From: a virus
Virus record (IMG/VR): IMGVR_UViG_3300032046_000008
Coordinates: 1 to 64,000 of that record
Length of the DNA: 64,000 bases
Strand: one strand, 5' to 3'
This document shows positions 5,034-20,949 of this stretch, in pieces. The first letter of the stretch is position 1; every line of letters begins with the position of its first letter. The notes under the pieces are model-generated. The model saw nothing but the letters and a program-made list of their open reading frames with translations, did not search any database and had not been told where the DNA came from. The translations under genes were made by a program, and so were the position numbers.

Positions 5034-5656
5034 TAGGGATGTCTCCCTGTAGTTATTTGGGCCTCTAAACTTTTTATAGTTATCATACGGCTAACGGTAT
5101 CCCAGGAAATTCTATAGGCATCCCGCAGCCCCTTGATAATACATAGTTTGGCATCTTCTTCTATGAAGAGACGCTTAGTCTGACGCAATGTCTCATTTAC
5201 TTGAAGAATTGTTGCCTCCTTAGTCTTCTCTGTGAGCTTGCTGCTATCTTGAAGTTTGGAAGTAGCTATCATCATTGCCACGTCGTAACCTTCCTTAAGA
5301 GTACTGCGGCGACTCGTTATCTGGCCCATCAGGGTCTCCAGATAAGTCAAGTAAGCTCCAAACTTTTGGAGCAATTCGCTTAATTCACCTGTTGTGATAT
5401 CATCTCTCTGAGGCAGAGTTTCAAGATTCGGCTCTGGCACTCCTAGATTCTGCACCCACTCAGTGCTATCCTGGAAGACAGTCCACCACCCCCAGCCGCG
5501 CCGTACCGCGATAATCGAAAGTGGCAAAACGATAGGATCAATCCCTTGCTCATGCATTGTCTTGACTTGTTCCCATAGAGGATCTCCCTCAAGACATTTC
5601 CAATTCTGTCCGTATTCGTCTCGAATGAGAATTTGGGTCTCCGTCTCCGCTATCAA
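5033..5656 (-). CDS. UvsY-like recombination mediator (putative)
   Basis: Long helical protein ending ...SRMITI; lies in the RecA/exonuclease operon. Confidence 0.4.
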   Translation of the reverse strand: MIAETETQILIRDEYGQNWKCLEGDPLWEQVKTMHEQGIDPIVLPLSIIAVRRGWGWWTVFQDSTEWVQNLGVPEPNLETLPQRDDITTGELSELLQKFGAYLTYLETLMGQITSRRSTLKEGYDVAMMIATSKLQDSSKLTEKTKEATILQVNETLRQTKRLFIEEDAKLCIIKGLRDAYRISWDTVSRMITIKSLEAQITTGRHP

Positions 5657-6409
5657 TTAGTTCTCCTCGGTATATTTGATTACACTAGCAACATGCTCTG
5701 GCGTTAGAACAAATCCAGAGCACAAAGGATAGAAAGAACACCCTGAATCACGCGCCAACGGCGTCCTCTCAACCATCATGCCACTCCGCGCCCGTTCCAG
5801 AATATTCTTTAAGCGTCTCTCTATCCCATCCCAGATAGCAGGATCTAGTTGGTATATAAAGGGTTTTAGGGATTGGTCATTTTTATCCTCATATAAGAAA
5901 TATGTTGGCCAACCATGATGATGACGCATGTAGGGATGCACTTGTATCTTGTGCGCAAGAGTTGGTTCTCTGAGAGCCTTGAATTGTTCATGGTGCATAG
6001 TCTTAAATTCAAAGACATAGCGCTCACCAGTTGTGCGATTCCTCACAAGATCGTCGCATTCGCCTCGGATGCACAATTCTGGCAATTCCACGAGCCGGTC
6101 AGAATCTTTCTGCACCAGCGAGATGCCAGCCTTGTGCAAATATTCTTTCCAGTATCTGTCTCGGCAATGACCATTGTCGAAAATACGCTGTGTCCTGGCC
6201 GTGTGCGTCGTTTGTTGTTTGAGCCCAAGAAGCTCAAAGAGCAAACAAGCATCGCATTGATGAGAGAGACTAGAAGGATGGAACCAACCTGAATCACTGC
6301 GAGCCTTTAGACTTTTCTCGTGCCAGTTCTCTACTTCATCAACAAGCCAAGTTCCAGTTCTGAGGCCTATCAGACGACGTAACGGAGTATCTAACTTTGG
6401 ATTAGGCAT
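5657..6409 (-). CDS. Cas4-like PD-(D/E)XK exonuclease
   Basis: FHPS...C, IFDNGH, GECDD, FEFKT, Q...YM and C-terminal C..C...C. Confidence 0.8.
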   Translation of the reverse strand: MPNPKLDTPLRRLIGLRTGTWLVDEVENWHEKSLKARSDSGWFHPSSLSHQCDACLLFELLGLKQQTTHTARTQRIFDNGHCRDRYWKEYLHKAGISLVQKDSDRLVELPELCIRGECDDLVRNRTTGERYVFEFKTMHHEQFKALREPTLAHKIQVHPYMRHHHGWPTYFLYEDKNDQSLKPFIYQLDPAIWDGIERRLKNILERARSGMMVERTPLARDSGCSFYPLCSGFVLTPEHVASVIKYTEEN

Positions 6410-6749
6410 TGGTTCCTGCCCTCATTTGATGTTTCCTCGGTTCCGATGTGCTGGCCCACTTCTCTAAGAATGGTACGAGCCGTCTCTGAAAGTTGTCGCC
6501 ATTAAGACCTTCGGCCTTTATTCGCAATGTTGGAATAAAATATCGTTCTTCCAAGAAGGCATCTCGCTCTCTGTCGCTCTTTCTCGTGTGGCCTGGACCA
6601 TCAATCTCTACGCAGACATGGAATTCAGGGAGGTACAAGTCCAAAACCTTTGGAGTGAAATCTTGACATTCACTCAAGTAACTTATCTGGAGTTTATCCA
6701 GATATTTCTCCGCCTGCCGGTGCGGGCCTGTCCTTGTCGTTTCATCCAT
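6402..6749 (-). CDS. DUF559/Vsr-like endonuclease
   Basis: LDLYLP....VEIDG..H....D.ERD..L.....PTLRI. Confidence 0.75.
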   Translation of the reverse strand: MDETTRTGPHRQAEKYLDKLQISYLSECQDFTPKVLDLYLPEFHVCVEIDGPGHTRKSDRERDAFLEERYFIPTLRIKAEGLNGDNFQRRLVPFLEKWASTSEPRKHQMRAGTNA

Positions 6750-7440
6750 TGCTAATTCTTTTCAAAGCAATTTCTACAGCCGTAGCATCGGAATCACATC
6801 CCAGGAATTTTCTAAATGTTTGCTGGCATGCCACAGCCATTGTCCCAGATCCCAACATCGGATCAACTACAAGATCCTCTGGCCTTGTGCTACCAAGAAG
6901 CAACCTCTTCATAAGCCTGATAGGTTTCTGCGTTAGGAACCCAACCTTTTCTTTTGAAAAGGAACACTGATCCACTGGCTCAATATCATCCCACCAGTCG
7001 CTATATACAAATCCTCCACCTCCTCCACCACCCCTACGCTCATAGTTCTCTGGCTTCGGCCTCTCAATTCTTCTCCATCTCCAATCCTTGCCAGCGAAGC
7101 CTGCAATTAACTGATATTGACGAGGCCAGAATCTAGTAGAACGGCTCTTGAATCCGCTAATCCAGCCATTGCGCCAAGCAATACATCCTCGCAGTGGAGG
7201 CAATTTACCTCCGAGCTCGAAGAACATTTGAGGATCACCATGCAAATAAACAATGCCCTTTAGACCAATAAGTTCATAGGACCTACAAACTATCTTGCAC
7301 AGATTCTCTAAATCAAAGCCACCGAAGGCTCCGTGCCCAAATGGCGGATCAATATAGACCATATTAGCAGAATCAATCTGCGACAAGAATTCTAAAGCGT
7401 CAGCTTGACAGATTTTGATGCTCGGTTTTGTCTGCTCCAC
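6742..7440 (-). CDS. Beta-class amino (N6A/N4C) DNA methyltransferase
   Basis: Motif IV YIDPPF precedes TQKP..L and motif I DPMLGSGT. Confidence 0.85.
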   Translation of the reverse strand: MEQTKPSIKICQADALEFLSQIDSANMVYIDPPFGHGAFGGFDLENLCKIVCRSYELIGLKGIVYLHGDPQMFFELGGKLPPLRGCIAWRNGWISGFKSRSTRFWPRQYQLIAGFAGKDWRWRRIERPKPENYERRGGGGGGGFVYSDWWDDIEPVDQCSFSKEKVGFLTQKPIRLMKRLLLGSTRPEDLVVDPMLGSGTMAVACQQTFRKFLGCDSDATAVEIALKRISNG

Positions 7441-8380
7441 AATGTCTAAGCTCCTGTTTCAATAATTCAAATGCCTCTGGCTGGTCGCAGAAATGTTGCC
7501 TTGCCGCCGCTCGCCCGAGCCATTTGAGAGACTGCCAGGAATAATACGGTGGCCGTGCCACAATAAGACCTCTGTTGATAGCCTCATCAATATAAGATTG
7601 CAACAAATCCAGTTGTCCTTGAAAGCGGAAAGGAATACTCGCCACGCCTTGTGGTGTCCCTGTCTTGTTCTTCTGGCAAGAGACCTCTAGTGTGAATCCC
7701 ACCCGCTGAGTCCCTTCTAGAAGCCATCCCTCTCTTCTTGTACGCAGAATTATATGACTGTAGTGTCGCTGCCCTCTGCCGCCAGGATAAACTTCTTCTG
7801 GGCCATAGCCTCCCATGCTAGAACGCAATTGATTAATGGCAATGAAAATTGCCTGTTTGTTCAAAGGCATTATGGTGTAGAAGAGCAGATTAACTAACTG
7901 GGCCAGCAAACCCATGGTCTTCTCTTCCGCAGATCTCTCCAAAATTGGCATTGGAGTCATTGAAGCAATACTGTCAAGAATGATGAGCCCTAATTCCTTG
8001 TCGCTTTCAATCATAGAACGCATAACATCGATGGCTTTTTCGCCAGTTGTCGGTTGACTAATGATCAATTCTTCAGTATTGACTCCGCTAGCCTGCCACC
8101 AAACTTCGTCATAAGAACGCTCAGTATCTACCAGGAGCACATGCGAGCGCCCTTCTTGCTCTTGTTGCGCCTTTGCAGCGTACTGGGCAATCAGAGTCTT
8201 GCCTGTGCTCTCTGGTCCCACCATGAGCGTTGTGCGCCCATAAGGAAAGCCACCGTTTAGTATCTCATCAAGGGAAGGAATACCTGTCGCGAGGCGGCGA
8301 ATGTGTAGACGTTCATCATTCCCCTTCATGAGCAGTCCATCTTTTATGAGTTTGTCTACGGAAGGCAGAGTCGTCGTCAT
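7400..8380 (-). CDS. recA: RecA/UvsX recombinase
   Basis: TGIPSLD..L.GG.P.GR, Walker A GPESTGKT, DTE, IILDSIA, INQLR, PGG and KNKT. Confidence 0.92.
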   Translation of the reverse strand: MTTTLPSVDKLIKDGLLMKGNDERLHIRRLATGIPSLDEILNGGFPYGRTTLMVGPESTGKTLIAQYAAKAQQEQEGRSHVLLVDTERSYDEVWWQASGVNTEELIISQPTTGEKAIDVMRSMIESDKELGLIILDSIASMTPMPILERSAEEKTMGLLAQLVNLLFYTIMPLNKQAIFIAINQLRSSMGGYGPEEVYPGGRGQRHYSHIILRTRREGWLLEGTQRVGFTLEVSCQKNKTGTPQGVASIPFRFQGQLDLLQSYIDEAINRGLIVARPPYYSWQSLKWLGRAAARQHFCDQPEAFELLKQELRHCGADKTEHQNLSS

Positions 8381-8883
8381 GCAATTCTCCAAGCATCCGC
8401 CGCCGACCCAAATTCAAAGCCCAGTTCTTTCCAGGCAGGTATCAGAATCTGTTGTTCCAACAATACTATATTCCCACCAATCTTTGGGTAAGCAATGACA
8501 AGCCTCTTCAGGGAAAGAGAACTGGCTAGACCAATTCCATCAGAAAATCGTGAATGGCGTTGCCAGAATTTGCGGCTAGTCCCATTCGGCATTCCCGCGT
8601 ACTTATCATAAAGAGTCAACCGGCTGGCGAACAAATCTGGAGGCAATAGATTATCACGAGCATAACGCTCATAATAAATGCCAGGAACCAATTGCCCCCA
8701 GATTGGCGAACCATTGCGCGGCTTGGGATGGAGTTCTACATCTCGCTCAAGCCAATGACTATTGGAAAAGAAATCATAGAAGACTCTGAAGGCTCCATAA
8801 GGTAGAGATTCTGGCCTTTCCAAAATAGAATGGGCCTCTATTCCCAACAAATGCAAGAGTTGAAGAGCCAATATTTCATCCAT
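8377..8883 (-). CDS. Hypothetical protein
   Basis: 168-aa ORF coupled to recA; no recognised motif. Confidence 0.55.
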   Translation of the reverse strand: MDEILALQLLHLLGIEAHSILERPESLPYGAFRVFYDFFSNSHWLERDVELHPKPRNGSPIWGQLVPGIYYERYARDNLLPPDLFASRLTLYDKYAGMPNGTSRKFWQRHSRFSDGIGLASSLSLKRLVIAYPKIGGNIVLLEQQILIPAWKELGFEFGSAADAWRIA

Positions 8884-8885
8884 GG

Positions 8886-9155
8886 TTAGTTTCCTTTAAG
8901 AACTTCGATCTGCCGCTGTAGATCAAGCAGGGCGCGGGCCTCTCGAATTTCTCGTCTCACATACTCGACACGCTGACGATCTGTAACGCTTAGACCGAGA
9001 TCATCTAGTAAACGATCCGCTGTGAATAGTGCCCGCTCTAATGGTTGGTCGGTCTTCGCCAGCATGTCCTTCAGAGCCACATTCTCAGCACGGAGGTCTA
9101 CGTTCTCGTTCTCCAGGACCGTCCAGCGTTCAGTTTCCTCATTCCCGAATGACAT
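8886..9155 (-). CDS. Small coiled-coil protein
   Basis: Heptad pattern LENENVDLRAENVALK; GGAG RBS. Confidence 0.55.
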   Translation of the reverse strand: MSFGNEETERWTVLENENVDLRAENVALKDMLAKTDQPLERALFTADRLLDDLGLSVTDRQRVEYVRREIREARALLDLQRQIEVLKGN

Positions 9156-9158
9156 CGC

Positions 9159-10115
9159 TCATCTCCCTATGGCCTTCATGAATGCTCTTCCTGCCATTAC
9201 CCAATCTGGATACATTTCGCAATGCCTAACCCAGTCTGGGCCAAGCGCAGAACTCTTGTATCCGCAGCGATACACTGCCAGAAAATCAGATGCAAACTCC
9301 AAGAACGGCATCTGACTTTGTACCATATAACCATCAAGTATTTGATTCAATTCTCCAATTAATACATCGTGCGGCAACAAGCCTTTGAAGAGCGGTCCAG
9401 GTTTCGGCAATCTCGGCAATGGGCTTTCATATTCATCCATCATGCGCCTGGTAATTCGATGTGCCGGACCATCCTTATACAAGTGTAGGCTATTGCTAAT
9501 GTGAGTCTGAATACCAATCTTCACGCCTAAACGAGCCGCAATATATTGGAGGAGAAAACTAAATTCTGCCTGATTAATGGCATAGAGGCCCCAATGAATA
9601 TCATTGCTGCGGCAATAGATGGTAAGATGCAGCCTGCCATTACGTAGTTTGAAGGTTAGGATGCTATTGCAAGGCGGATCATTTGAATCTGTAGTCAAGT
9701 CTTCAATTCGCCAGATAAGAAGTTGTGCTCGTCTGTCGTTAGGGTCGGCTTGCAGTCTCTGGATGACATTCTCTATCTGATCTGCTATGCGCTCGCCATA
9801 GGCCCCAGACATCTTGACTCCGTCGTCAGAAAACTGAAGAATGTTCTTGTTGTACGGCGTTAGGGCTGCCACATCATCTCGTCCTGCCAACACCCAGAGA
9901 GATTCGCTCAGGGCCAGAAAGGGGTTCCATCTTCTTCCAGGAACAATATGCACCATGCGCTCGGGATATCGAAAGACAGTTGCTACATTGAGAAATTCAA
10001 GTGTATCCTTAATTGTGCCTCTATTTCTAACGGACACATATTGACCTAGCAATAGCAAAGTTGAGAGTTGTCTACGATAAAGATGCATCGGACAACAACT
10101 TCTGAAAACTATCAA
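9159..10115 (-). CDS. Thymidylate synthase-family enzyme, likely dUMP hydroxymethylase
   Basis: NPF..L.E.LW.LAG, GAYG.R, RRA...IW, catalytic PPCN, RSND..WG...N (Asn = dUMP specificity) and SLHLY; adjacent to hypermodification genes. Confidence 0.85.
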   Translation of the reverse strand: MIVFRSCCPMHLYRRQLSTLLLLGQYVSVRNRGTIKDTLEFLNVATVFRYPERMVHIVPGRRWNPFLALSESLWVLAGRDDVAALTPYNKNILQFSDDGVKMSGAYGERIADQIENVIQRLQADPNDRRAQLLIWRIEDLTTDSNDPPCNSILTFKLRNGRLHLTIYCRSNDIHWGLYAINQAEFSFLLQYIAARLGVKIGIQTHISNSLHLYKDGPAHRITRRMMDEYESPLPRLPKPGPLFKGLLPHDVLIGELNQILDGYMVQSQMPFLEFASDFLAVYRCGYKSSALGPDWVRHCEMYPDWVMAGRAFMKAIGR

Positions 10116-11014
10116 GACGCCATAACCTTATCGTAGTGTTGCTCGAGCCATCCAGATTCCTTCGGCAAGAAATAGCGCTTGCGGCCCTTGCCATTCTGGA
10201 GCTTTTTGTATTTCATCCACTCGCAGCATGAATGTTCTATATTGCGCAGATTAAGAACCTTGTTTTGCCAGAACGGCATCTCCATACCATCAAAGCACTC
10301 TGGCTGTGCATGTCGCAGTTCCAGAAGTTTCTCATATTGGATCTTGTAATTTCTACTCCCTGTTAGAAAATAAAGACCGAGTCTTGCTCCTGGTCCAAGG
10401 TTGGCCCAATCATCAATACTCCAGGGCAACAGACCATCGACCAGAAGAAGATCACATACGACCTCGTAGGCCGTAAACATAGCCACTCCATTTAGTTGTG
10501 TTAATTCTTCGGCAAATCCCTTCAGATCCATGCACGGAGGAATTTCTCCGACACTAGGAACTTGTTCCCAAGCCTCGTCCATAAACTCTATGAAGTTTGT
10601 TATGCGATCCGATACACGAGGTAATTGCAAGGTTATGTATGCCTTGGAGTAGATCGAGCCAATCTTCTGAAGCCCGCGCAGCTTGTCTTCAATATCTTTC
10701 CTAGACCATTCCCAATCTCGCAATTCAGGAAACTTGCCAATAGCGGACCATGTATCAACGCTATTCACTAATCTGTAGGCTAAGGTTTGCCAGATAGCAT
10801 CACCCAGATTGCCCTTGAAACAAGACGCTATATTCTCTAGATACCAGACCGTGCCTCTATCTAATTCTCTGTAAACATTTGTAAAGTGATATTGCGCCAA
10901 AACAAGATCCTCTGTCCATGGTGGAGACTGTTTGAGAAAAAAACGACGATGCCAGATCTTATGCCTCTCCGCGACAAATCTAAAGAAGTCTTCATCCCTG
11001 CTCGGCGGTTGCAA
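10112..11014 (-). CDS. aGPT-Pplase1 / 5-hmdU DNA kinase helical-domain family protein
   Basis: FF.FV.ERH.IW.RR...PPWTED.VL..Y.FTNVYRELDRGT, F.AYEVVCDL, N.GPGA..GL, IEH..CEW.KY. Confidence 0.85.
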   Translation of the reverse strand: MQPPSRDEDFFRFVAERHKIWHRRFFLKQSPPWTEDLVLAQYHFTNVYRELDRGTVWYLENIASCFKGNLGDAIWQTLAYRLVNSVDTWSAIGKFPELRDWEWSRKDIEDKLRGLQKIGSIYSKAYITLQLPRVSDRITNFIEFMDEAWEQVPSVGEIPPCMDLKGFAEELTQLNGVAMFTAYEVVCDLLLVDGLLPWSIDDWANLGPGARLGLYFLTGSRNYKIQYEKLLELRHAQPECFDGMEMPFWQNKVLNLRNIEHSCCEWMKYKKLQNGKGRKRYFLPKESGWLEQHYDKVMAS

Positions 11015-11342
11015 AATGTTCCTCTTTCACAAGTTGCAATTCCTGCCAGGCAGAGACCAGGCTGCCGAGAATTCCCCCTCCGCCAATGTCCTCGCCATAG
11101 CGAAAGATGAGAGCTAGCACATTAAAAACTGTGTCTACTATCTCTTCTTCTATCAACCGAACATTATCTGATTGCATGACCTTGTTAATTCGACGATCAC
11201 CGATTTTGTCATCCAAAAGATATTCTTCGCCATGCTGCTCATACCGACTTATGACTTGAAGCACAAGATCAAATGGTAGAAAAGCCAGAAAATCTTCAAG
11301 AAGATCCGTAGAATCAGGATACCATTCCTTAGTTTTATTCAA
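10992..11342 (-). CDS. Putative all-alpha (MazG-like) nucleotide pyrophosphohydrolase
   Basis: R...HG..Y and EEEIVD..N acidic helix; location in the modified-nucleotide locus; TTG start overlapping the dnaE stop is inferred. Confidence 0.4.
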   Translation of the reverse strand: MNKTKEWYPDSTDLLEDFLAFLPFDLVLQVISRYEQHGEEYLLDDKIGDRRINKVMQSDNVRLIEEEIVDTVFNVLALIFRYGEDIGGGGILGSLVSAWQELQLVKEEHFATAEQG

Positions 11343-14178
11343 CCACAACCGCGAAGGACTCTGCGAGGAATACTGGCTCGCGGGATCCATCTGTGGAGTT
11401 TCGACCTCTGATCTCGAGCGCTGGTCCACCATGCACCTCCTTACAGAACTGGCTCCAAAGATCTGGGAACATGATTGCTCGGAAGGTTCCCTTTGTGTTC
11501 CCTAGCGTCACATATCCCATATATCGTCCTTTGTTGTACCCTGGTTTCACAATCTCTCGCTGACTCATGTCGATCAACCAACCGGAGATGCTTGATTTGC
11601 GTACATCGTTGGCTTTCTCGACAAATTCCTGCGAAAGAAGATTCGTGTTGAAATCATAAAGCTCATCCATGATCTTTTTGTCGCCATTGATACCAATAGA
11701 AGTCAAGACTCCTGCTTGTTGGAGCATCATGCGCTGCTTCTCACTAAGAGCTCGTGAGCCCTCTTGTTTCGCCGCCAGATCATCTAAACTCTTAGTTGGC
11801 CTCCTCGCCATAATGGCCATCACAGTTGCCGGCCCCAAACCTCGTATTTTGCCAAGCCCTATACAAACTTCCCCATTGCGAAGAGATGTCTTATATTCAC
11901 TGAAGTTTACATCTGCTGCCCGCCAATGAACTCCATAATGATAACTCTCTAGCAACAAACGAGGAACATCGGTGCATTCATCAAAAACTGCTGCATAGAA
12001 GATTTGTGGATAATATCGTTTATACCATGCCATCTTGTAGGCCAAAGCGGCATAGGTCACAGCGTGAGCGCGATTGAATGCGTACCCTGCGAAGCCCTTT
12101 ATGGCCTGCCATATAAGATTATGATCTCTTGGACATCCTCGTTGAAATCGTTCTTCCATCTTCTTGAAGACTTCAGGATGGACATATTTGATGGCTTCTT
12201 TGATATCATCCTGAGCTGCGTCATCAAAACCTCCTAGAACCCGACATATCTCCATAACCTGTTCTTGGTAGAGAACAATTCCTCGTGTCGAGGCAAGTAT
12301 TGGTTCTATTTCTGGATAAAAATCTGTGAGTTCTGTTGTTCCCTCGCGATATAGATCAACAAAGCCAGCAGCGCCTGGCAACTTCAAGGCATTAACTGCC
12401 ACAATGTCCTCAAAGTTACTCACAGGCAGTCTCTCAAGTACTCGTCTGGCTGCCCAACCATCAATTTGGAAGATCTCTGATGTATCTTTCCTTCGGAATA
12501 CATCGTATACCTTAGGATCGTCATACTCTTCTGGAGCCTGTGCGCCAGATGCTCTTGCCATTTGCTCCAACTGATCCAATGTATTTAGACCAAGTATGTC
12601 GAGTTTGAAGAAACCAAGTTCCTTCAGTGCATACATATCATACTGAGTTGCCATCTGTTGGCTCGAAGCGACCCAGACCAATGGCACTTCTCGCTCCAGA
12701 GGGCGATTCTCATCTGCCAGAACAATACCTGCTGGATGTACAGAGAGATTGAAGTAGAGTCCCTTCATCCCCTCGACAACCTTCCGGACATCCTCCGCCA
12801 AGATACTAAGATCTGTGAATCCCCATTCCCCCACCATGCCTCTGCAAACATCATCCATTCTTGGATTTGGCCAACCAAGAGCTCGCAATACAGAGCGAGT
12901 AGCCCCTCTTGGACCATAATGCCCATATGTTACTATAGGAGCACTATGCGCATACTTCTTCTGGAGGTAATCTAGAACCTCGCCTCTACGACGACTACTG
13001 ACATCAATATCGAAATCTGGAATTGTTGGACGAGCCGGCGAGACTGCTCGCTCGAACAGAAGTCGATGACGTACTGGATCCTCTGTCGTTATGCCAAGAA
13101 TGTGACTTATAAGACTTCCAGCCATGCTGCCTCGCCCAGACACCATAATACCCTGCTTGTGGCACCAGGCGACAAGATCATATGCTACCAAATAGGATTG
13201 CGCTATAAGCGGAGCCTTCTCTAGTACTCTTAGTTCGCGCTCATAGCGCTCCTGATATTCCTTCGGGCGATCCACTTGGAAATATATCTCGCAGAGTTGC
13301 TTCAATCGGGCGATAGGAGCAGATATCTTGGGAACATGCCAAGTACGCTTCTCTAACTCGGGGATTCTGAATTCTCGACAAAGATTTGCTACTTCAATAG
13401 TATTACTAGCAGCTTCTGGCGCACCAATCTTCTCTGCAATTTGATGCATAACATTGGATGGTTTAAGGTAGAATCCCTGCGCATCAAAGACAATACCCTT
13501 GCTCGCAACTTGCCTCGAGCGCAAGAATTGCTGATGAATCTGCTCTCGCTCCTTAGAGATATAATGGCAATCATTCGTCAGAACACAAGGGATACTGAGG
13601 TCGCGGCTAAGTTCCTTCAAGCCTCTGATAAGCAATTTCTGTTGCTCTGCCCATTCTTCATTGCCCGAGTGCCACATCAATTCTAAATAAAAAGCTCCTG
13701 CATGTTTCGCGAGAAGTTCGGCTGCCTGTTTTGCTCGACCATCGCCAGCAACGACCCAGCGCGAGATGATACTCGTGAAGCATCCACTCAGCACAACCCA
13801 ACGCTTCATCAATTCTTCATCTATAAGTTGACGCATAGATATACGAGGCCGGTAGTAGAATTGTCTCTGGGCAATATTGTTAGCGCGGATGAGATCCCGA
13901 TAGCCCTGCTCGTCCATCACCAGAACAGTCAAGTGCTGAGGATAATCGGCTACCTCTTTAGGATCAACAAATAACTCGCAACCAACAATAAATTGCAATC
14001 CTGCCTCGCGGCAAGCCTTGTAACCTTCTACAATACCGCCTAGACTACCATGGTCTGTAAGAGCAAAGGCTGGCTGACCATCTGCCTTCGCTGCTGCAAC
14101 ATAGCCGATAACAGTTGCTTGCCCATCAAGAACAGAGTATTGAGAATGATTGTGAAGATGACAGAAATCAGCCATCAA
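11335..14178 (-). CDS. dnaE: DNA polymerase III alpha subunit (family C)
   Basis: PHP domain HLHNHS/TDHG/TNDCHY, GRGS.AGS, catalytic PDFDID, HPAG, KLDILGL, YQEQVM, FAGYAFNRAHA and C-terminal OB fold. Confidence 0.95.
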   Translation of the reverse strand: MMADFCHLHNHSQYSVLDGQATVIGYVAAAKADGQPAFALTDHGSLGGIVEGYKACREAGLQFIVGCELFVDPKEVADYPQHLTVLVMDEQGYRDLIRANNIAQRQFYYRPRISMRQLIDEELMKRWVVLSGCFTSIISRWVVAGDGRAKQAAELLAKHAGAFYLELMWHSGNEEWAEQQKLLIRGLKELSRDLSIPCVLTNDCHYISKEREQIHQQFLRSRQVASKGIVFDAQGFYLKPSNVMHQIAEKIGAPEAASNTIEVANLCREFRIPELEKRTWHVPKISAPIARLKQLCEIYFQVDRPKEYQERYERELRVLEKAPLIAQSYLVAYDLVAWCHKQGIMVSGRGSMAGSLISHILGITTEDPVRHRLLFERAVSPARPTIPDFDIDVSSRRRGEVLDYLQKKYAHSAPIVTYGHYGPRGATRSVLRALGWPNPRMDDVCRGMVGEWGFTDLSILAEDVRKVVEGMKGLYFNLSVHPAGIVLADENRPLEREVPLVWVASSQQMATQYDMYALKELGFFKLDILGLNTLDQLEQMARASGAQAPEEYDDPKVYDVFRRKDTSEIFQIDGWAARRVLERLPVSNFEDIVAVNALKLPGAAGFVDLYREGTTELTDFYPEIEPILASTRGIVLYQEQVMEICRVLGGFDDAAQDDIKEAIKYVHPEVFKKMEERFQRGCPRDHNLIWQAIKGFAGYAFNRAHAVTYAALAYKMAWYKRYYPQIFYAAVFDECTDVPRLLLESYHYGVHWRAADVNFSEYKTSLRNGEVCIGLGKIRGLGPATVMAIMARRPTKSLDDLAAKQEGSRALSEKQRMMLQQAGVLTSIGINGDKKIMDELYDFNTNLLSQEFVEKANDVRKSSISGWLIDMSQREIVKPGYNKGRYMGYVTLGNTKGTFRAIMFPDLWSQFCKEVHGGPALEIRGRNSTDGSREPVFLAESFAVVVE

Positions 14179-15002
14179 CTACCTATGTTCCAGAATACCA
14201 CTGGTGGTGTTAAATCATGAATATGGGCACACAACCAATTCCATGCTTTTAAGTCATAATAAGGATTGCAAGGAAAAGGGCTAGTGCATTCAGCTCTATC
14301 TCTATAGGAATAACCCTCATCTATGATAATTGTTCCCTCCCCCAATCGCTTTCTCAGCAATTTCTGACTGTGACTGTAGCCCATATGAGCCACTAATTGC
14401 GCTCGCCCAGACAAACCCGCCGCCACGCCCTTTGCTATTGTGCCTGTACTGACTGAGACAATCCATGTGCCCCCAAACAAGCTGTCAGGAGTGTATTGCT
14501 CCACTTCTTTCTTGGTAGCTTCCGCACTTTCTGCAAGTTGAAGTCCATTGGGCAACATATGCCCTCTGCCACCTGTCAATTCCAACAACTGCCGCTTGGC
14601 TTGATGGAAAAGAATAGCAGAACGCCCTGCCTTTAGTGGTATAAGTTTCGCCCCTAACATGCAAGCTCTGATCTGACCTTCACGCATTTCAATGTCGTGT
14701 CGGTAAAAAGGATAGAAATTATAGCATTGATGACCTAGTGCCTTGCAAACATAAGCCGCTCCCCATCCAGCTTTAGAATGATACGTATCCAGGACCCCGA
14801 TTATAGAATCTGCTGGGTAATTATTCAAGTACTTCGCTAATCCTCTGATCTTGGAAAATTGTGGTCCTTCAGGGCAACACAAATCTTCGCGCTTGACCCA
14901 GACAGTCTTATCCCCCACCTTGTGCAATTCCCAAGGTGTGTCTTCTAAAACAATCCTGGTCTGCGCATTAATCGACAAAGACGAATCCGCGTTTGCGATC
15001 AT
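14175..15002 (-). CDS. PLP-dependent enzyme (fold type II), putative DNA-base decarboxylase
   Basis: TP.E...VWVKREDL...SKIRG (PLP Lys), SVSTGTIA.G, PFPCNPYYDLKAW and FWNIG. Confidence 0.8.
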   Translation of the reverse strand: MIANADSSLSINAQTRIVLEDTPWELHKVGDKTVWVKREDLCCPEGPQFSKIRGLAKYLNNYPADSIIGVLDTYHSKAGWGAAYVCKALGHQCYNFYPFYRHDIEMREGQIRACMLGAKLIPLKAGRSAILFHQAKRQLLELTGGRGHMLPNGLQLAESAEATKKEVEQYTPDSLFGGTWIVSVSTGTIAKGVAAGLSGRAQLVAHMGYSHSQKLLRKRLGEGTIIIDEGYSYRDRAECTSPFPCNPYYDLKAWNWLCAHIHDLTPPVVFWNIGS

Positions 15003-15702
15003 GTATCCACATTTCCTCTGCCTGATGTTGGCCAGGTTTAGCCAAGAAGTTTGCTTCGCCTGCATGATAAGCGGCACGAGAAATAGTGTAGCCAAACATA
15101 TCAAAGAGATATGACGAAACCAGAGCTGTGTAATCCTCTATCCTAACAATAGGAACACCAAAATGCTTTGTATAAAGTTTACAATTGTGTCCCAGGTGGG
15201 TTATTGCCGTATCTGTCCACAGAACTGCTTGTGGATCTTTAGCAAATAATCTAGAAAAAGGTTCCGACCAATCACTACCTTTGATGTGCTGATACAATGT
15301 CCAACTATTGAAATCCGCTATGAAAACATCGCCGTCTGCGACCCCCATAACCTGCCGCGAATCTGCCTTAATAATTGACATATGAGAACAAGCACCAAAC
15401 ACCCTTTGCAGATGATCAATGCAATTTTGATCTAATTCAAACACTGTATGAGATAAAGGCACAAGTACTTCTTCCGCTATCAAAGCACTTCTGCCTACCC
15501 CGCCAAAAAATTCCACAACTCTCAAACTCTTGGGAAGAGAAGAAAGTAACCATTCTATCGCCAAGGCTCCGCCTGCAACATCTGCTAGTCTTCTTTTCAA
15601 CTGGACAAAGAAAGGAGCAAATTGGACAGCAGTTGGGTAATCTTTTGCCAGATCTGATTCTGAGATAGGAAGCAACCATTTTTCGCAAATCAAGGCTTTC
15701 AT
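14968..15702 (-). CDS. Class I SAM-dependent methyltransferase-like protein
   Basis: VVEFFGGVG (motif I), VFELD (motif II), IIKADS and DVFIADF Rossmann pattern. Confidence 0.6.
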   Translation of the reverse strand: MKALICEKWLLPISESDLAKDYPTAVQFAPFFVQLKRRLADVAGGALAIEWLLSSLPKSLRVVEFFGGVGRSALIAEEVLVPLSHTVFELDQNCIDHLQRVFGACSHMSIIKADSRQVMGVADGDVFIADFNSWTLYQHIKGSDWSEPFSRLFAKDPQAVLWTDTAITHLGHNCKLYTKHFGVPIVRIEDYTALVSSYLFDMFGYTISRAAYHAGEANFLAKPGQHQAEEMWIHDRKRGFVFVD

Positions 15703-15703
15703 C

Positions 15704-16567
15704 CTAGGCCTCCATCAAAGAATAATGCGGTATCCTATATGCCATTCGTCTTTGCATGCCCATACCTTCTTTCAAGTTATCTGCTGTATCTCCACAACAA
15801 CACACAGATATACCAAGATCGTCATGAACAAAACTCATCCAAAATGCCCATATCGCTTTAGAGAGAAACTGACTAGAATAATCATGCTTGGCTTGTGTAA
15901 TAACTGCCACTCCAGAATAAACATAGCCGCCAACCAGACCCGAAATGATTCCGTTTCCATTTAGGGCAAAAAACATTCTCGAATTGGCAAAATGACAATG
16001 GGCTCTTATCATCGCTCTGTAATGCCCTCGCACAACCATAAAGTGGCGCTCCTTGGCCTTTTCATACCATCGTTCCAGAATATCAAACATTTGCTGTTGG
16101 CCAATTTCGTCCCTGGAGACTTCGACAAACCTGTATCTTCTTAAGGCAGAGCGTATTTGCCACCGTTTGTTGGCACTCAATTCAGAATTTTGCCAAGAAG
16201 AAAAAGAATACCACACAGATGCTTTCACCAACCTGATATAATCTAGACACTCCGGCAATAGGAGAGAGTTGAATCTGGTAATTCCCAAATTCTTAAGGCA
16301 TAACGTTGCCATGTGGTAGAACTTCTCAGTCTTTTCTCCCTCCCAATGAATCAAAGTAGCCTGTGTCTTCTCTTTCCGAAGATACCAAACAGCCTCCATC
16401 ATATTTAGGCGCAAAAGACAAGATCCTGGTTTGGAATAGGCAAATGTGGAAATAACCTCTGGAAAACTATAGTAGCTTTCACTTGGCAAAACCTCTATTC
16501 CTTCCAAGGTATATTGTGGAATTATTGCCAAAGATGCACTATGCGTCATTATTTTCTCAGACCACAT
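15704..16567 (-). CDS. GNAT/DUF2156-like (aminoacyl/acyl transferase-like) protein
   Basis: KR..IR....RY.F, ..W..., FF...G.I.G..GG and ..QAKHDY...LSKAI resemble the DUF2156/FemABX double-GNAT pattern; weak. Confidence 0.4.
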   Translation of the reverse strand: MWSEKIMTHSASLAIIPQYTLEGIEVLPSESYYSFPEVISTFAYSKPGSCLLRLNMMEAVWYLRKEKTQATLIHWEGEKTEKFYHMATLCLKNLGITRFNSLLLPECLDYIRLVKASVWYSFSSWQNSELSANKRWQIRSALRRYRFVEVSRDEIGQQQMFDILERWYEKAKERHFMVVRGHYRAMIRAHCHFANSRMFFALNGNGIISGLVGGYVYSGVAVITQAKHDYSSQFLSKAIWAFWMSFVHDDLGISVCCCGDTADNLKEGMGMQRRMAYRIPHYSLMEA

Positions 16568-17996
16568 TCATTCTTGCCATCAGTACTTCGTCAAGCGAAG
16601 GTAATCCCCATAATTCTGCATCTGTTGCCAAATTAGGATTACGACCTCGCTCTTTGGCACATTCCGGCAAAGGCGAGGAATCAAGCAATTGCCAATCCTC
16701 TTCCCGTCCCTCTAGTCTTACAGAACAATAATCTTTGTACTGCAAAGCCTTGGCAGATAACAGAACTACGTTGCGGCAAGCCTTTGTTCCATATTCCTCA
16801 CAATACAAACAACCCTTGCGATAGCATCCTGGCAATGGTTCAAACCTAGCATCTGGTGCTGACCGATAATGAATGGGCACGGCTGGACCATGACATTGAT
16901 CGGCAGTGGTGAACCAAGGCGCTAAGTTCGCGCCTCCTTTGCCATTGTTATAATATTCGTAGCACAAGCTCATGGTGATGTTGTGTTGTCGTGTCCAAGG
17001 CAACAATTCTTGCAACCAAGCCACTCGCGTATCTTGACGAATCGTGCGAACACCACCGATGATTTGTGTCATAAGGGATTCAAACTCCTCCACCCCTTCT
17101 AGATGACCTCGCCGGAGTCTGTCCAACAATTCTTTGTAAGAACCCAGATTAGATTCGCAGAACTTAAAAATAACATGATTTGCTCCTGCCTGGGCCAAGC
17201 AGCGCACCAACTCCTTCATATCATCCAAGGTGACAATCCCAGGCAGCACAGGATTGACCTGGATACTAATGTAAATGCCCAAATCCGCGTATTCCCGTAT
17301 AATCTCATACAATTGATACAAATGGAACGATCCTGGGGATAATCTCCTGAAGACCGCCTCATCTGCCACATTCACACTCCACTCCATATAAGAGTATGGA
17401 CTTTGCAACAAAATATCTTTGGCCCAATCGGGCGGAAGCTTCCGACTTAAGTAAAAAAGAGGAATACCTTCATCCACAAACACCTTGGACAATCGCTCTA
17501 CAACATGATAGCGAGTCTCTAGATTCTGGAAAGGCTCTGTGAAACTTGATATGTAAGCTGGACCCACGACCATCATTTTGCTAAGGCGATTACGAATAAA
17601 ATCTGGGTAGTCTGGGTTTACCGCCGGCAAACCTGTTGCATGATAACCCCTGCTCCCAAAATCTATATAACAGAATTTGCAGCCTATCTCGCAATATCCA
17701 GTGTACGGTATAGTCAATATTGCTTCGGAATAACAAGGTCGAGGCCTTACCTTATCAGAGACATGCTTGTCTTTGTACCATCCTCGGGGATTAGGACTAC
17801 TAGAAATTAATAGATGTTTAACTGGCTCGGTGTACACTTTTGCAGGTTTCGTTTTGCCACCCAGCACCATGCTTATTGGTATAGATTGATATGGACCTTG
17901 ATCATCCACGCCCTCTTCTATTGGAGCAGCCAAGCGAAACCGTCGTTGCCGATATTCCTCATCCGATTCCGATTGTGGCTTCCCAACCTCGTTCAT
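16557..17996 (-). CDS. Radical SAM enzyme (SPL-like subfamily) with extra C-terminal Cys cluster
   Basis: YCEIGCKFCY (CxxxCxxC), SSFTEPFQ.LE, NPVLPGI and GCYRKGCLYC......C. Confidence 0.9.
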   Translation of the reverse strand: MNEVGKPQSESDEEYRQRRFRLAAPIEEGVDDQGPYQSIPISMVLGGKTKPAKVYTEPVKHLLISSSPNPRGWYKDKHVSDKVRPRPCYSEAILTIPYTGYCEIGCKFCYIDFGSRGYHATGLPAVNPDYPDFIRNRLSKMMVVGPAYISSFTEPFQNLETRYHVVERLSKVFVDEGIPLFYLSRKLPPDWAKDILLQSPYSYMEWSVNVADEAVFRRLSPGSFHLYQLYEIIREYADLGIYISIQVNPVLPGIVTLDDMKELVRCLAQAGANHVIFKFCESNLGSYKELLDRLRRGHLEGVEEFESLMTQIIGGVRTIRQDTRVAWLQELLPWTRQHNITMSLCYEYYNNGKGGANLAPWFTTADQCHGPAVPIHYRSAPDARFEPLPGCYRKGCLYCEEYGTKACRNVVLLSAKALQYKDYCSVRLEGREEDWQLLDSSPLPECAKERGRNPNLATDAELWGLPSLDEVLMARMNVV

Positions 17997-18046
17997 CCAG
18001 ACGCCTCCAATCTCGTATTTTCAAAGTTATCACCATCGATCAAGAA

Positions 18047-19084
18047 TCAGATGGGAACATCCTGGCGATTACCAATTCCCTCAGGCCATTCGTCCCAAGT
18101 CGCAAGGACATCTTGCGCCTGTATGTCACCAGCGCGTGCACGGCGAATCAATTCCTCGGAGACTGGAATTCCCTCGTGTCCCTCGGTTGTCTCGAGAAGT
18201 TCACCAAGTCGTGCCGTGCTAATCTGGCACAAATCCCGATCAGCAAGATCCTTGTCTTCCTCAATACCAATGTCAATGTCATCACCAGGAATTGGCACAT
18301 ACTCTGCTAAGGTATTCGCCAGAGAACCCCAGCCAATCAAAGCCTCTTTTATATCACGGCAGTCCTTGCCCACATAGTAATGGCCTGTTTGCGTGGCTTT
18401 GTATTTGCACAATATAGTTTCTATTTCCTGCACATTTATGGGCCGCTCGCTACGAGGAGGAGCCACCCAATCCGAAAACTGTTCCTTTAATGCCGATACA
18501 ACATAATCAAGTTCCTGGTCGTTCAGCGGAGCCTTCAGATCACCCTTCAATATTACCGCCGCTCCTTTGCGCACTTCCGCATATATGCAAAGGGAAGAAC
18601 CAGGAAACTCTATTTTGGCCAATCCCAGTCGTTCCAACATATCTGCAAGTTTCCATGTTATCCATGGACCAAACATTGGAACTGGCGCGCATGCATCTTG
18701 CACCTGATTGAATGTGACACACCTGCATAATTTCTCAAAGAAAGCCTCAATAGCCTCTTCACACGGAAAGTATATAAGAGTCCGTTGCGCCTGCTTGCCA
18801 CGGAAATGTCTACGCTCCATGCCCCTCGGGAGAGTTCGCAACGTTTCCTGAAGCCAATTCTGCCAATCATCGTGATCTGTTGCATAACTCGCAACGCCTG
18901 CGTGGTAGAACAACCAATAAACCCAAAGCCAACGACAAAGAGAACCGCGATTTAGTAAATTATTGTCTATCCCTCGCTGGAGCATTATATATATAGGATC
19001 AAGATCGCCAGTTGTAAGCAGGCTCTCCCCGAATTCTACGCAAGCCTGCCAATGAACAGGATTAACCTTGGTTGGAACATCCAT
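18047..19084 (-). CDS. aGPT-Pplase2 / amino acid:DNA transferase (AADT) family protein
   Basis: L.TGDLDPIY, YW.FYH.G.AS, RG.ERRHFRG, FGPWI.WK.ADM.ER and NVQE.ET.LCKYK...HY.VGKD. Confidence 0.85.
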   Translation of the reverse strand: MDVPTKVNPVHWQACVEFGESLLTTGDLDPIYIMLQRGIDNNLLNRGSLCRWLWVYWLFYHAGVASYATDHDDWQNWLQETLRTLPRGMERRHFRGKQAQRTLIYFPCEEAIEAFFEKLCRCVTFNQVQDACAPVPMFGPWITWKLADMLERLGLAKIEFPGSSLCIYAEVRKGAAVILKGDLKAPLNDQELDYVVSALKEQFSDWVAPPRSERPINVQEIETILCKYKATQTGHYYVGKDCRDIKEALIGWGSLANTLAEYVPIPGDDIDIGIEEDKDLADRDLCQISTARLGELLETTEGHEGIPVSEELIRRARAGDIQAQDVLATWDEWPEGIGNRQDVPI

Positions 19085-19091
19085 TCTTGTA

Positions 19092-19292
19092 CTATCTCCT
19101 TAAATTTCTAGCATAGACGAATGTCAAGATCACCACTCCTGGCAGAAGACCTGTAGCTCTGTTCAGAGCATAGACAAACCATAAGCTCTGTCCAGCAAGC
19201 CCAAACACCCAAGCCCAGTAACTTTTATTTCCGGCCAGCCACATATTGACAAGCGTCATGACACTCAACATCCAGGGTATGTAATCCAGCAT
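19092..19292 (-). CDS. Small 3-TM PnuC/SemiSWEET-like membrane protein
   Basis: W.LS..TL..MWLAGNK..WAW..GL..Q.LW..Y hydrophobic pattern. Confidence 0.6.
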   Translation of the reverse strand: MLDYIPWMLSVMTLVNMWLAGNKSYWAWVFGLAGQSLWFVYALNRATGLLPGVVILTFVYARNLRR

Positions 19293-19856
19293 CTAACCAT
19301 ATACCTTCGGCAGAGCAATCCCCTCCAGAGCGAACACATCCAGCAACTGACGGTATGCTCTCTCATGATTAAGAATCCGTACTATTTCGCCCGCTTGCAG
19401 AGCTTTGTTAAGAATGCTTCGAACTCTCTCAAATTTGTCAAAAATATTGTTCGGATTGATGGTCCTGCCATTGTTACGGATATAGACTCGGCTGAGGCAA
19501 ACTTCCTTCGGTGTATCCAGAAATACCCAAGTAAATTGTCCTGGACCAAGTTCTTGAGAAAGATTATGCCATCGTCCCCAGATTGCGCCTACGATCATAC
19601 CCTCAAATAGCACATTGCCCCGTTCGGCATATTCTCGCACCATAGGTTCTATACGGTCAAAGGGTTTGATAGAATCACATCCGCCAGTCTTCATTGTATA
19701 AGGGCCAAGAACAAACGTGTTGAATTCTGGGATATGAAAGACCTCTGCGGTTCCTCTGGCATCAAAGCCAACAGCCTGATGATCATGCTCAATTAAGAAT
19801 CGTCTCACCAGTGTTGTCTTGCCACTGCCAAAGGTGCCGCAAATTAGAAATATCAC
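19293..19856 (-). CDS. P-loop nucleotide kinase of the hypermodification-associated type
   Basis: GTFGSGKTT, LG.Y....GG.D.I, VLFEG and FLDTP.E.CL.RV..R. Confidence 0.8.
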   Translation of the reverse strand: MIFLICGTFGSGKTTLVRRFLIEHDHQAVGFDARGTAEVFHIPEFNTFVLGPYTMKTGGCDSIKPFDRIEPMVREYAERGNVLFEGMIVGAIWGRWHNLSQELGPGQFTWVFLDTPKEVCLSRVYIRNNGRTINPNNIFDKFERVRSILNKALQAGEIVRILNHERAYRQLLDVFALEGIALPKVYG

Positions 19857-20074
19857 TGCAACCTTCTACCAAGTTCCTGCTCTATTTTGGCTTCTAGCTC
19901 CTGCTCGACAAGCGTCACTGTTTCTCGGAGAGATTGCTTGGCATCTGCCAATTGCTTCTCTAGGGGCTGTTCTGTGTCAATCTCATCTACGCGCACCATG
20001 AAGCGCATATATTCATTATGACCAGGATCGCCGATATGCATCGTTACGCTGCACTCACACCCCACTTTTGGCAT
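19853..20074 (-). CDS. Hypothetical protein
   Basis: TAATG coupling to the SSB gene. Confidence 0.6.
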   Translation of the reverse strand: MPKVGCECSVTMHIGDPGHNEYMRFMVRVDEIDTEQPLEKQLADAKQSLRETVTLVEQELEAKIEQELGRRLQ

Positions 20075-20949
20075 TAGAACAACTCCTCTGGAGGTACATC
20101 TTCATCTGGAGGAGGAACAATTGCTTCTGCCACAGCCGCCACTGCTTCTTCCACCATTGCCGCAGGAGCCTTTGCTGCAGCCGCTGGTGTCGGCTTATAG
20201 GTGCTGGCCGGAGCAGGTGATGTTACTGGAGCTCCTGGTGTATAAGCCTTCACAGTCCCAGGCGTAGATATCTCTGCTACAGGTGCAGGTCTGCGCACTG
20301 TCTCTATGCCTAACAATTGTTCTCGCAGAATATCAATCACAGGCTTGGCTTCTTGCTTAGCCTGCGCAACTATCTCATCAGGCAGTGCCCCAGTATTCGG
20401 CACAACATGAATCTTGTATCGACGATCCAGACCTCCTCCTGTGGACACAAGATTCATCTGGCTGGCTCGCAGATTGCCAAGTTGCTCGCCGAGGAAGATG
20501 ATGTCTGCCAGAGGAGATTCGCGCCAAGCACTTGTATCCCAGAGGCGAAGACCATTGACAGGTTGCTTAAAATAGTTGCGACCAGAATAGAAAACTGTCT
20601 CCAATTGCTCCCCCTGCTTCAATTGTGTGCGCAAAATATCATCTATCCAGAACCAGATCATCATTCGGTCCTTCTTCTTGATATCCTGATCACACAGAGG
20701 ACAGGGGAGGTCAGAAGTTGCCACCAAAGACTTCGGGCAGAACTTTACATCACCAAAGCCTCCCTCTCTCTGGGCAGGCAACTCATGACCTTCAAATACT
20801 TCCATGTAGGGATCATCATCTTCGCCGCTGGACAGAAAATGGAAGAAGACTAGGTCTCCTTCGCGCGGATAATACCATTGTCCTCCTCCCTTGGGACGCT
20901 CTGCCTCGATCTGCTGTTGCCGTTCCCTGAGATCCTTGATGCCAGCCAT
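20074..20949 (-). CDS. Single-stranded DNA-binding protein (gp32-like, Zn)
   Basis: H...C...CPLC zinc motif, G.G.D.RY, Pro/Ala linker and acidic tail ending EELF; in the replication operon. Confidence 0.7.
   Translation of the reverse strand: MAGIKDLRERQQQIEAERPKGGGQWYYPREGDLVFFHFLSSGEDDDPYMEVFEGHELPAQREGGFGDVKFCPKSLVATSDLPCPLCDQDIKKKDRMMIWFWIDDILRTQLKQGEQLETVFYSGRNYFKQPVNGLRLWDTSAWRESPLADIIFLGEQLGNLRASQMNLVSTGGGLDRRYKIHVVPNTGALPDEIVAQAKQEAKPVIDILREQLLGIETVRRPAPVAEISTPGTVKAYTPGAPVTSPAPASTYKPTPAAAAKAPAAMVEEAVAAVAEAIVPPPDEDVPPEELF

Follow-up and report, generated by a model that had tools for sequence, protein, structure and literature searches.

The minus strand of the first 64 kb of the IMG/VR virus record IMGVR_UViG_3300032046_000008 (positions 1 to 64,000, hereafter the window) carries at 9159-19856 a run of genes that we read as a post-replicative thymidine hypermodification operon of the type found in Pseudomonas phage M6, extended by two further tailoring enzymes, here called X1 and X2. 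On this reading, to which we give a probability of roughly 0.6, the pathway would end in 5-(2-aminoethyl)-dU (5-NedU) that is N-methylated, N-(amino)acylated or both, and the phage probably makes a DNA base that has not yet been described. A first-pass annotation, made from the letters alone, had claimed eleven open reading frames (ORFs) in this run and had described them as an M6-like core with two tailoring enzymes between the radical S-adenosylmethionine (SAM) and pyridoxal phosphate (PLP) enzyme genes. All eleven are present on the minus strand, and the description stands: each of the six M6 pathway proteins is matched with its catalytic residues kept, and the two inserted proteins have a predicted double-GNAT fold and a class I methyltransferase fold. 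The genes on which the argument turns are listed below, with BLASTP identities to the M6 proteins.

19293..19856, minus strand: P-loop part of the 5-hydroxymethyldeoxyuridine (5-hmdU) DNA kinase, M6 gp54 homologue (PF18748, 1.6e-17; 33% to gp54; Walker A GTFGSGKT)
18047..19084, minus strand: amino acid:DNA transferase (AADT; old name aGPT-Pplase2), probably glycine-specific (PF18724, 1.1e-15; phrog_6364, 8e-56; 32% to gp51)
16557..17996, minus strand: SPL-like radical SAM enzyme, homologue of the M6 gp53 glycinyl-thymine isomerase (phrog_9252, 1.1e-88; 39% to gp53)
15704..16567, minus strand: X1, a near-orphan, predicted double GNAT resembling FemAB, the MprF C-terminal domain (DUF2156) and Acetyltransf_6, candidate (amino)acyl transferase on the side-chain amine (ESM Atlas fold)
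14968..15702, minus strand: X2, a class I SAM-dependent methyltransferase of 244 amino acids, candidate side-chain N-methyltransferase (AlphaFold 2 (AF2) fold, SAM motifs)
14175..15104, minus strand: PLP-dependent fold type II decarboxylase, M6 gp52 homologue (phrog_7093, 4e-61; 43% to gp52)
10112..11014, minus strand: helical-domain protein of the 5-hmdU DNA kinase, M6 gp55 homologue (PF18723 HMUDK_hel, 1.6e-46; 28% to gp55)
9159..10115, minus strand: thymidylate synthase (TS)-family dUMP hydroxymethylase of the SPO1 gp29 / M6 gp58 type (PF00303, 1.3e-22; phrog_5131, 2.2e-63; 36% to gp58)

Comparison of the ORFs with the M6 enzymes by BLASTP and profile hidden Markov models (HMMs) thus recovered 6/6 pathway proteins at 28-43% identity. 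The two kinase proteins score well above the Pfam cut-offs, with 64 bits against PF18748 (cut-off 27) for the P-loop protein and 159 bits against PF18723 (cut-off 25) for the helical one. The latter family, HMUDK_hel, is the one that we take to have formerly been named aGPT-Pplase1; the first-pass placement of 10112-11014 in aGPT-Pplase1 was therefore right as to family, but its product belongs to the kinase, as the helical partner, and is no second transferase. The AADT scores 58.5 bits against PF18724 (cut-off 26.2) and shares 32-36% identity with M6 gp51 and PaMx11 gp46. Conserved in it are the residues reported as important in PaMx11 gp46, namely D24, R94, H95, R97, W146, K150 and E243 along with the catalytic C247 (PMC11472151), and the C247 equivalent and the DNA-binding residues are invariant in the AADT alignment. 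The same protein ends in an additional acidic stretch of about 80 amino acids at the C-terminus (window 18047-18290, minus strand), which is absent in M6 gp51, PaMx11 gp46 and the AADT of one of the metagenomic loci described below (L003).

The match of the radical SAM enzyme to M6 gp53 spans 86% of its length and includes the CxxxCxxC motif (CEIGCKFC at residue 102) as well as the second, C-terminal Cys cluster of gp53; the label of its PHROG family is 'DNA repair photolyase'. The PLP protein, whose PHROG is labelled 'threonine dehydratase' and whose Pfam PALP score of 19.5 lies under the cut-off of 35, aligns with M6 gp52 from ORF residue 51 onwards, and its gene probably starts at ATG 15002 rather than at TTG 15104. 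The lysine of its FSKIRG motif is aligned with K36, the PLP lysine of gp52 (PMC8989533). For the TS homologue, phrog_5131 is also the best PHROG of M6 gp58 (1.9e-172) and of SPO1 gp29 (2.5e-136), the latter being annotated in its record as a dUMP hydroxymethylase. Its top matches in cultured phages are SPO1, SP8 and SP82G, all 5-hydroxymethyluracil (hmU) phages, at 40-41%, followed by PaMx11-like phages, and it scores far under every NCBIfam ThyA cut-off. In the alignment it shows the hmU-type motifs NPF...ESLW, SDDG, PPCN and RSND and a C-terminal extension, with the catalytic Cys149 in PPCN and, at the position that specifies uracil, an Asn in place of the Asp of T4 dCMP hydroxymethylase. 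Motifs, family and matches together support a dUMP hydroxymethylase activity. The first-pass labels of P-loop kinase, aGPT-Pplase2/AADT, radical SAM enzyme, PLP enzyme and TS homologue with the dUMP-specifying Asn are accordingly retained.

In M6, gp54 phosphorylates 5-hmdU in DNA and gp51 then installs glycine (Lee et al., PMC8989533), after which gp53 isomerizes N-alpha- to C-alpha-glycinylthymidine and gp52, which is inactive until the primary amine is unmasked, decarboxylates the product to 5-NedU (PMC8989533). Judged by homology, the phage in the window would follow the same course. The TS-family enzyme would supply 5-hydroxymethyl-dUMP and the phage DnaE would incorporate 5-hmdU, which the split kinase (P-loop plus helical protein) would phosphorylate in DNA; the AADT would then swap the phosphate for glycine via its conserved Cys to give N-alpha-glycinylthymidine, the SPL-like radical SAM enzyme would move the glycine from the N-link to the C-link, and decarboxylation by the PLP enzyme would yield 5-NedU.

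X2 draws zero matches in the Pfam, NCBIfam and PHROG family libraries. An exhaustive HMMER search places it in a family of at least 258 representative clusters at E<=1e-3, 128 of them at E<=1e-10, whose members are mostly about 245 amino acids long; the conservation, the AF2 input and the Pfam counts given here rest on an 80-sequence alignment of this family. The AF2 model has a mean predicted local distance difference test (pLDDT) score of 96.1, and both Foldseek and VIA put it among the class I SAM methyltransferases, with VIA Z scores of 12-16 to many of them: Trm1 at 16.1 (211 residues aligned), Trm5 at 15.3, PH1948 at 15.2, an RsmD-like protein at 14.7 and TYW2 (3a27) at 14.4. When the family profile is run against the PDB sequences the best match is KsgA (2e-4), TYW2 following at an E-value of 0.003, and individual relatives touch the Pfam families RrnaAD (7/80) and PF02475 TRM5-TYW2 (5/80). 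Motif I takes the form VVE(Y/F)FGG(V/I)G, with G68 and G70 invariant in 80/80 sequences and E64 conserved; position 89 is acidic (E/D) in 80/80, D114 of motif III is conserved, and motif IV reads D130-[FW]-[PN]-x-[FW]-T in the family, D130 being present in 78/80 and the window protein having D-F-N-S-W. X2 thus appears to be a working SAM enzyme, and its closest relatives, going by the predicted fold, methylate exocyclic amines of nucleic acids, which upholds the earlier label of a methyltransferase-like protein. Like Trm1, RsmD, Trm5 and KsgA it has a class I Rossmann fold (Z 14-16), SAM motifs I-III and a motif IV in which Asp is followed by an aromatic residue; it differs from them in that identity is only 10-14%, in that its motif IV is not (D/N)PP(Y/F), and in that its family is apparently viral only and adjoins AADT genes.

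This last feature emerged from pattern scans, the loci found being annotated by BLASTP, HMM and Pfam. Seventeen loci were collected, 16 on metagenomic or viral contigs and one in the cultured phage Pam3, and in 16/17 the X2-family gene lies among thymidine-hypermodification genes. Gene orders are given below, with identities to the window proteins unless stated otherwise.

L014 (IMGVR_UViG_3300017971_000032): AADT (41%), radical SAM (55%), X2, PLP (48%) and, further on, kinase; the order of the window minus X1
L016: AADT, PLP, radical SAM (62% to M6 gp53), X2, kinase, helical protein, TS, HD; an M6-like phage plus X2
L003: TET_JBP, kinase, AADT, PLP, X2, radical SAM, with an intein-like insert
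L015: X2, PLP, X2
L006: PLP, X2, kinase helical protein
L007: TS (54%), X2 (47%)
L017 and L019-L021: X2, AADT and, further on, kinase, helical protein, TS; without a radical SAM or PLP gene
L022 and L023: TET_JBP, X2, a protein of no assigned function, AADT, kinase
L008: radical SAM and X2 only, with no other known hypermodification gene

Pam3 (Pseudanabaena phage, ON014755), a cyanophage, is the one cultured phage in which a family member was found: the product of its gene 39 scores 7.9e-31 against the X2 profile, and the gene stands upstream of genes for a PLP enzyme, a radical SAM enzyme (72% to M6 gp53), an AADT, a kinase and a TS homologue (L024 10971-21603; genes 39-52). The papers on Pam3 that we searched do not discuss DNA modification. 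The exception among the loci is L008, where kinase, AADT and TS genes were not found; there, at 6890-10480, a 198-amino-acid X2-like protein follows a 504-amino-acid radical SAM enzyme and a 492-amino-acid protein of no assigned function, with a ParB_N gene nearby, and this locus may be a different modification module. In L003 the radical SAM homologue (4482-6887) has 801 amino acids, its match to the window enzyme being split by an insert of about 316 amino acids with a weak Intein_splicing match. A further candidate locus, L004, was discarded as a false positive, its hit being a C5 cytosine methylase that shares only motif I with X2.

Other searches for relatives were largely empty. Searches by tblastn of the cultured phages with X1, X2 and the X2-like protein of L016 gave zero matches; a k-mer homology search returned one X1 relative (P0007) and zero X2 relatives; scans of viral contigs with P0008 and P0007, the closest relatives of X2 and X1 respectively, and with the X1 alignment gave zero finds; and no relative was confirmed by pattern scans of prokaryote species genomes with the X1 and X2 alignments. 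From its gene neighbourhoods X2 is, we propose, a recurrent uncharacterized tailoring enzyme of AADT-based pathways, of which the window holds one instance. The published surveys of thymidine pathways and of T-dioxygenases annotate neighbourhoods by Pfam, to which the X2 family is invisible.

X1 is a basic protein of 287 amino acids (isoelectric point (pI) 8.9) whose gene overlaps that of the radical SAM enzyme by 11 nt and is separated from X2 by 1 nt. Only two relatives are known: P0007, at 45% identity and likewise basic (pI 9.4), and a fragment in L005 consisting of a 125-amino-acid N-terminus with 27% identity by BLASTP and an hmmsearch E-value of 1.8e-11. L005 is a metagenome contig of 1.4 kb on which (2-1416) two tandem X2 paralogues are followed directly by the X1-like N-terminus, and it is the only other place where relatives of X1 and X2 are seen adjoining. 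For the closest relatives of X1 and of X2 alike, the cluster entry gives 6325 bp as the length of its longest contig, which hints at a single shared contig.

The fold of X1 is suggested by its ESM Atlas model (predicted template modelling score 0.77). The feature neighbours of this model in the Atlas are LPG_synthase_C clusters (score 0.96, 191/256 features shared), and over residues 7-286 its structure resembles that of FemAB, Acetyltransf_6 and LPG_synthase_C clusters, with TM scores of 0.75-0.81. The X1 alignment profile, run against the PDB, gave noise only. In a low-confidence AF2 model, the C-terminal half alone matches GNAT folds in VIA, with Z up to 9.3; the list includes ATE1, the aminoacyl-tRNA-dependent synthase Sbb17, FemA, FemX and MprF along with many acetyl-CoA GNATs. 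By sequence and predicted secondary structure, the beta4-alpha3 loop reads DYSSQF and is without the Q/RxxGxG/A motif that marks binding of the coenzyme A (CoA) pyrophosphate. The earlier GNAT/DUF2156-like label therefore holds at the level of the predicted fold and finds no counterpart at the level of HMM families. X1 resembles FemX/FemAB, the MprF C-terminal domain and Acetyltransf_6 in the predicted double-GNAT fold (7-286) and in its length of about 290 amino acids, and is itself basic; it differs in the absence of any HMM match and in its proposed acceptor, a DNA base side chain, those of FemX, FemAB and MprF being peptidoglycan precursors or lipids.

If both enzymes act on the same side chain, X2 would methylate the exposed amine once or twice and X1 would acylate it, most likely with an aminoacyl group from host aminoacyl-tRNA. 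As the PLP chemistry needs a free primary amine, both steps should follow decarboxylation. The final modified base would shield the phage genome against nucleases of the host. Hypermodification lets phage DNA withstand restriction enzymes and CRISPR nucleases, and it is a source of novel enzymes and DNA chemistry. A precedent for the proposed X1 step is Mom of phage Mu, a GNAT that moves glycine from Gly-tRNA onto adenine in DNA (PMC13219725), so that tRNA-dependent chemistry of this sort exists on DNA. A narrower version, which we advance tentatively and consider on the whole doubtful, is that X1 draws on host aminoacyl-tRNA for an amino acid, which it links through a peptide bond to the aminoethyl side chain of hypermodified thymidine in double-stranded DNA, X2 methylating the product, to give what might be called a 'peptidyl' base. 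Were this so, a thymidine pathway would for the first time include a tRNA-dependent step, and a double-GNAT Fem-type enzyme would for the first time be seen to act on DNA.

Several points weigh against the proposal of an M6-type pathway ending in a methylated and/or (amino)acylated 5-NedU. What is made, whether X1 or X2 acts first, how many methyl groups are added and where the acyl group comes from are all matters of inference. Relatives of the AADT are able to use serine or diamines (PMC13458397), so that the donor here may be other than glycine. X2 also occurs in clusters that are without radical SAM and PLP genes (L017, L022, L023); it may thus act on something other than 5-NedU itself, the target of the family perhaps being the amine of AADT products generally. 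Its motif IV departs from the canonical DPPY, and TYW2, an aminocarboxypropyl transferase, is among its close folds, which makes other SAM chemistry possible. As for X1, zero matches were obtained in Pfam, PHROG and NCBIfam even at an E-value of 10, and zero for P0007 in Pfam at E<=10; its AF2 model, built from a two-sequence alignment, is poor (pLDDT 49), and its predicted identity as a Fem/MprF-C-like double GNAT comes mainly from one ESM model. Proteins of the Acetyltransf_6 type are not all known users of tRNA. The phage has no tRNA genes, for which reason host aminoacyl-tRNA is proposed as the donor.

These points leave room for three other explanations. In the first, which we regard as unlikely, the phage makes plain 5-NedU as M6 does, and X1 and X2 are passengers with other targets, X2 methylating canonical bases in DNA or RNA, for example, and X1 being directed at a tRNA or a molecule of the host. 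Neither protein has an HMM-level assignment, the nearest folds of X2 are tRNA and rRNA methyltransferases, M6 needs only gp51-54 (PMC8989533), and L014, the closest cluster found, is without X1, all of which such a scenario would accommodate. It would not, however, lead one to expect X2 directly between or beside AADT, PLP, radical SAM or kinase genes in 16/17 loci, the more so as these loci vary in gene order and in the source of hmU (TS homologue or TET_JBP); nor does it fit well with the pattern scans, which confirmed no X1 or X2 relative in prokaryote genomes, or with the wedging of X1 between the radical SAM gene and X2 by an 11-nt overlap and a 1-nt gap.

The second explanation concerns X1 alone and has, in our judgement, a similarly small chance of being right: X1 would be an N-acyltransferase dependent on acyl-CoA or an acyl carrier, a functional analogue of PaMx11 gp48, and the product would be N-acyl rather than aminoacyl 5-NedU. 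An N-acetylated side-chain amine of thymidine has a precedent in PaMx11 (PMC8989533), the top VIA matches of the C-terminal half of X1 are acetyl-CoA GNATs (Z 9.3-7.5), and members of Acetyltransf_6, one of its structural neighbours, are without proven tRNA use. Yet hhalign finds no profile similarity between X1 and the gp48 acetyltransferase (probability 0.2%), the CoA-pyrophosphate loop motif is missing from the X1 sequence, and the matches that cover X1 in full are to double-GNAT FemAB and LPG_synthase_C proteins and not to single-domain GNATs. The third, that X2 is no methyltransferase but takes an aminocarboxypropyl or aminopropyl group from SAM in the manner of TYW2, thereby extending the side chain, draws on the TYW2 matches (Z 14.4; E 0.003; PF02475 in 5/80 members) and is the least probable, since most of the close folds (Trm1, Trm5, RsmD, RlmL, KsgA) are true methyltransferases and RrnaAD is matched more often than TRM5-TYW2 (7/80 against 5/80), although the sequence offers nothing to tell methyl from aminocarboxypropyl chemistry.

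We prefer the extended M6-type pathway, and compare it here with the systems already described. With M6 (a Yuavirus; PMC8989533) the window shares all six pathway proteins, catalytic motifs included, and the division of the kinase into P-loop and helical proteins. It differs in the addition of X1 and X2 between the radical SAM and PLP genes, in the DnaE gene and ORF146 (see below) embedded in the run, in gene order and in the acidic tail of the AADT; the phage itself is unrelated, having a genome of 102 kb with no DNA match to cultured phages. L014 and Pam3 likewise combine an M6-type core with an X2-family methyltransferase, but both are without an X1 homologue, and their modified bases are uncharacterized in the papers searched. 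The 5-AcNmdU pathway of PaMx11 (gp46 AADT, gp47 flavin adenine dinucleotide (FAD) lyase, gp48 GNAT) has the same front end of kinase, glycine AADT and TS homologue, and in both phages a GNAT-fold enzyme apparently acylates the nitrogen of an unmasked side-chain amine; the run in the window is without an FAD lyase, and X1, a predicted double GNAT of 287 amino acids, is unrelated at profile level to gp48 with its 140. Mu Mom (PMC13219725) is comparable as a phage GNAT that uses charged tRNA on DNA, but it is a single-domain GNAT acting alone on adenine N6, whereas X1 is a predicted double GNAT within a thymidine pathway.

The combinatorial diversity of hypermodification clusters in viromes has been reported already (PMC8989533), so that the principle is known and the locus is a concrete new lead rather than a new principle. 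What is new is the enzyme set, the recognition of X2 as a large family without a Pfam entry that is tied to AADT clusters and has a cultured member, and its coupling to a rare Fem/MprF-like transferase. Our literature search found no paper on a methylated or aminoacylated 5-NedU and none that describes this exact combination of enzymes, in agreement with the first-pass view that it is not known to have been characterized. Of the two extra tailoring genes only the GNAT-like one is rare, the methyltransferase not being particular to this phage. Since X2-family genes adjoin AADT genes in Pam3 and in many phages that have not been cultured, the family may mark out an entire group of methylated thymidine derivatives, and X1 could extend tRNA-dependent DNA modification from adenine, as in Mom, to thymidine side chains.

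Three further genes of the run complete the set.

19092..19292, minus strand: small hydrophobic protein of 66 amino acids, probably a membrane protein (phrog_2421, function unknown, 1.7e-12; LAB_N, E-value 0.0085, under cut-off)
11335..14178, minus strand: DnaE-like replicative DNA polymerase, embedded in the run (tblastn to phage 'DnaE-like DNA polymerase III alpha' genes)
10992..11432, minus strand: ORF146, an acidic protein with no library match and a strong Shine-Dalgarno sequence

The DnaE label is confirmed by tblastn identities of about 30% to these phage genes over 87-97% of its own length, and the gene overlaps that of the PLP enzyme by 4 nt, coupling the two. The 66-amino-acid ORF has hydrophobic windows and a pI of 10.2, but the label PnuC-like given to it was not confirmed, the sub-threshold LAB_N hit and the function-unknown PHROG being the only matches. 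The strong Shine-Dalgarno sequence of ORF146, AAGGAGGTGC, lies upstream of its ATG, and the gene overlaps the 3' end of DnaE by 98 nt. It had been called MazG-like, but its candidacy as a MazG-like NTP pyrophosphohydrolase finds no support, with zero matches in Pfam, PHROGs, NCBIfam and the PDB sequences; an EEExxD-like motif can be made out by eye only. Elsewhere in the window, a 174-amino-acid ORF at 25323-25847 (minus strand) matches phrog_2164 (function unknown) at 4.6e-26 and, weakly, a 'MazG-like pyrophosphatase' PHROG at 8e-5. If the phage has an enzyme that clears dTTP or dUTP, this ORF would, from its PHROG matches, be a better candidate than ORF146.

The virus record is 101,905 bp long, has direct terminal repeats and is rated complete. 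A search of sequencing runs found the identical sequence in DNA runs of sediment metagenomes only, no RNA run being listed for it, and megablast of the region against 50,697 cultured-phage records gave zero nucleotide-level matches. Nearly all long ORFs of the window are on the minus strand, among them every gene of the hypermodification run. From the upstream end, the successive junctions along the run measure -4, 0, +7, +50, -11, +1, -137, -4, -98, -23 and -4 nt, and most are overlaps of 1-23 nt; the junction of -137 nt shrinks to about -35 if the PLP gene starts at ATG 15002. Short overlaps of this kind are typical of translational coupling, so that 9159-19856 looks like a single transcription unit, and the tight packing bears out the earlier description of a co-oriented, mostly translationally coupled run. 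A consensus scan for promoters and terminators gave matches no more frequent, or marginally more so, than in shuffled sequence, with no convincing internal promoter or terminator.

At 19853-20949 (minus strand) two acidic ORFs of 291 and 73 amino acids, with zero Pfam or PHROG matches, are coupled to the start of the kinase gene by overlaps of 1 nt and 4 nt, and may belong to the same operon. The run as a whole sits within the replication module of the phage. Upstream of it are genes for an SNF2 helicase, a DnaB-like helicase and a primase, and directly downstream, also on the minus strand, are those for a RecA homologue (7400-8392), an N6/N4 DNA methylase (6742-7440) and a Cas4-like exonuclease (5657-6409).

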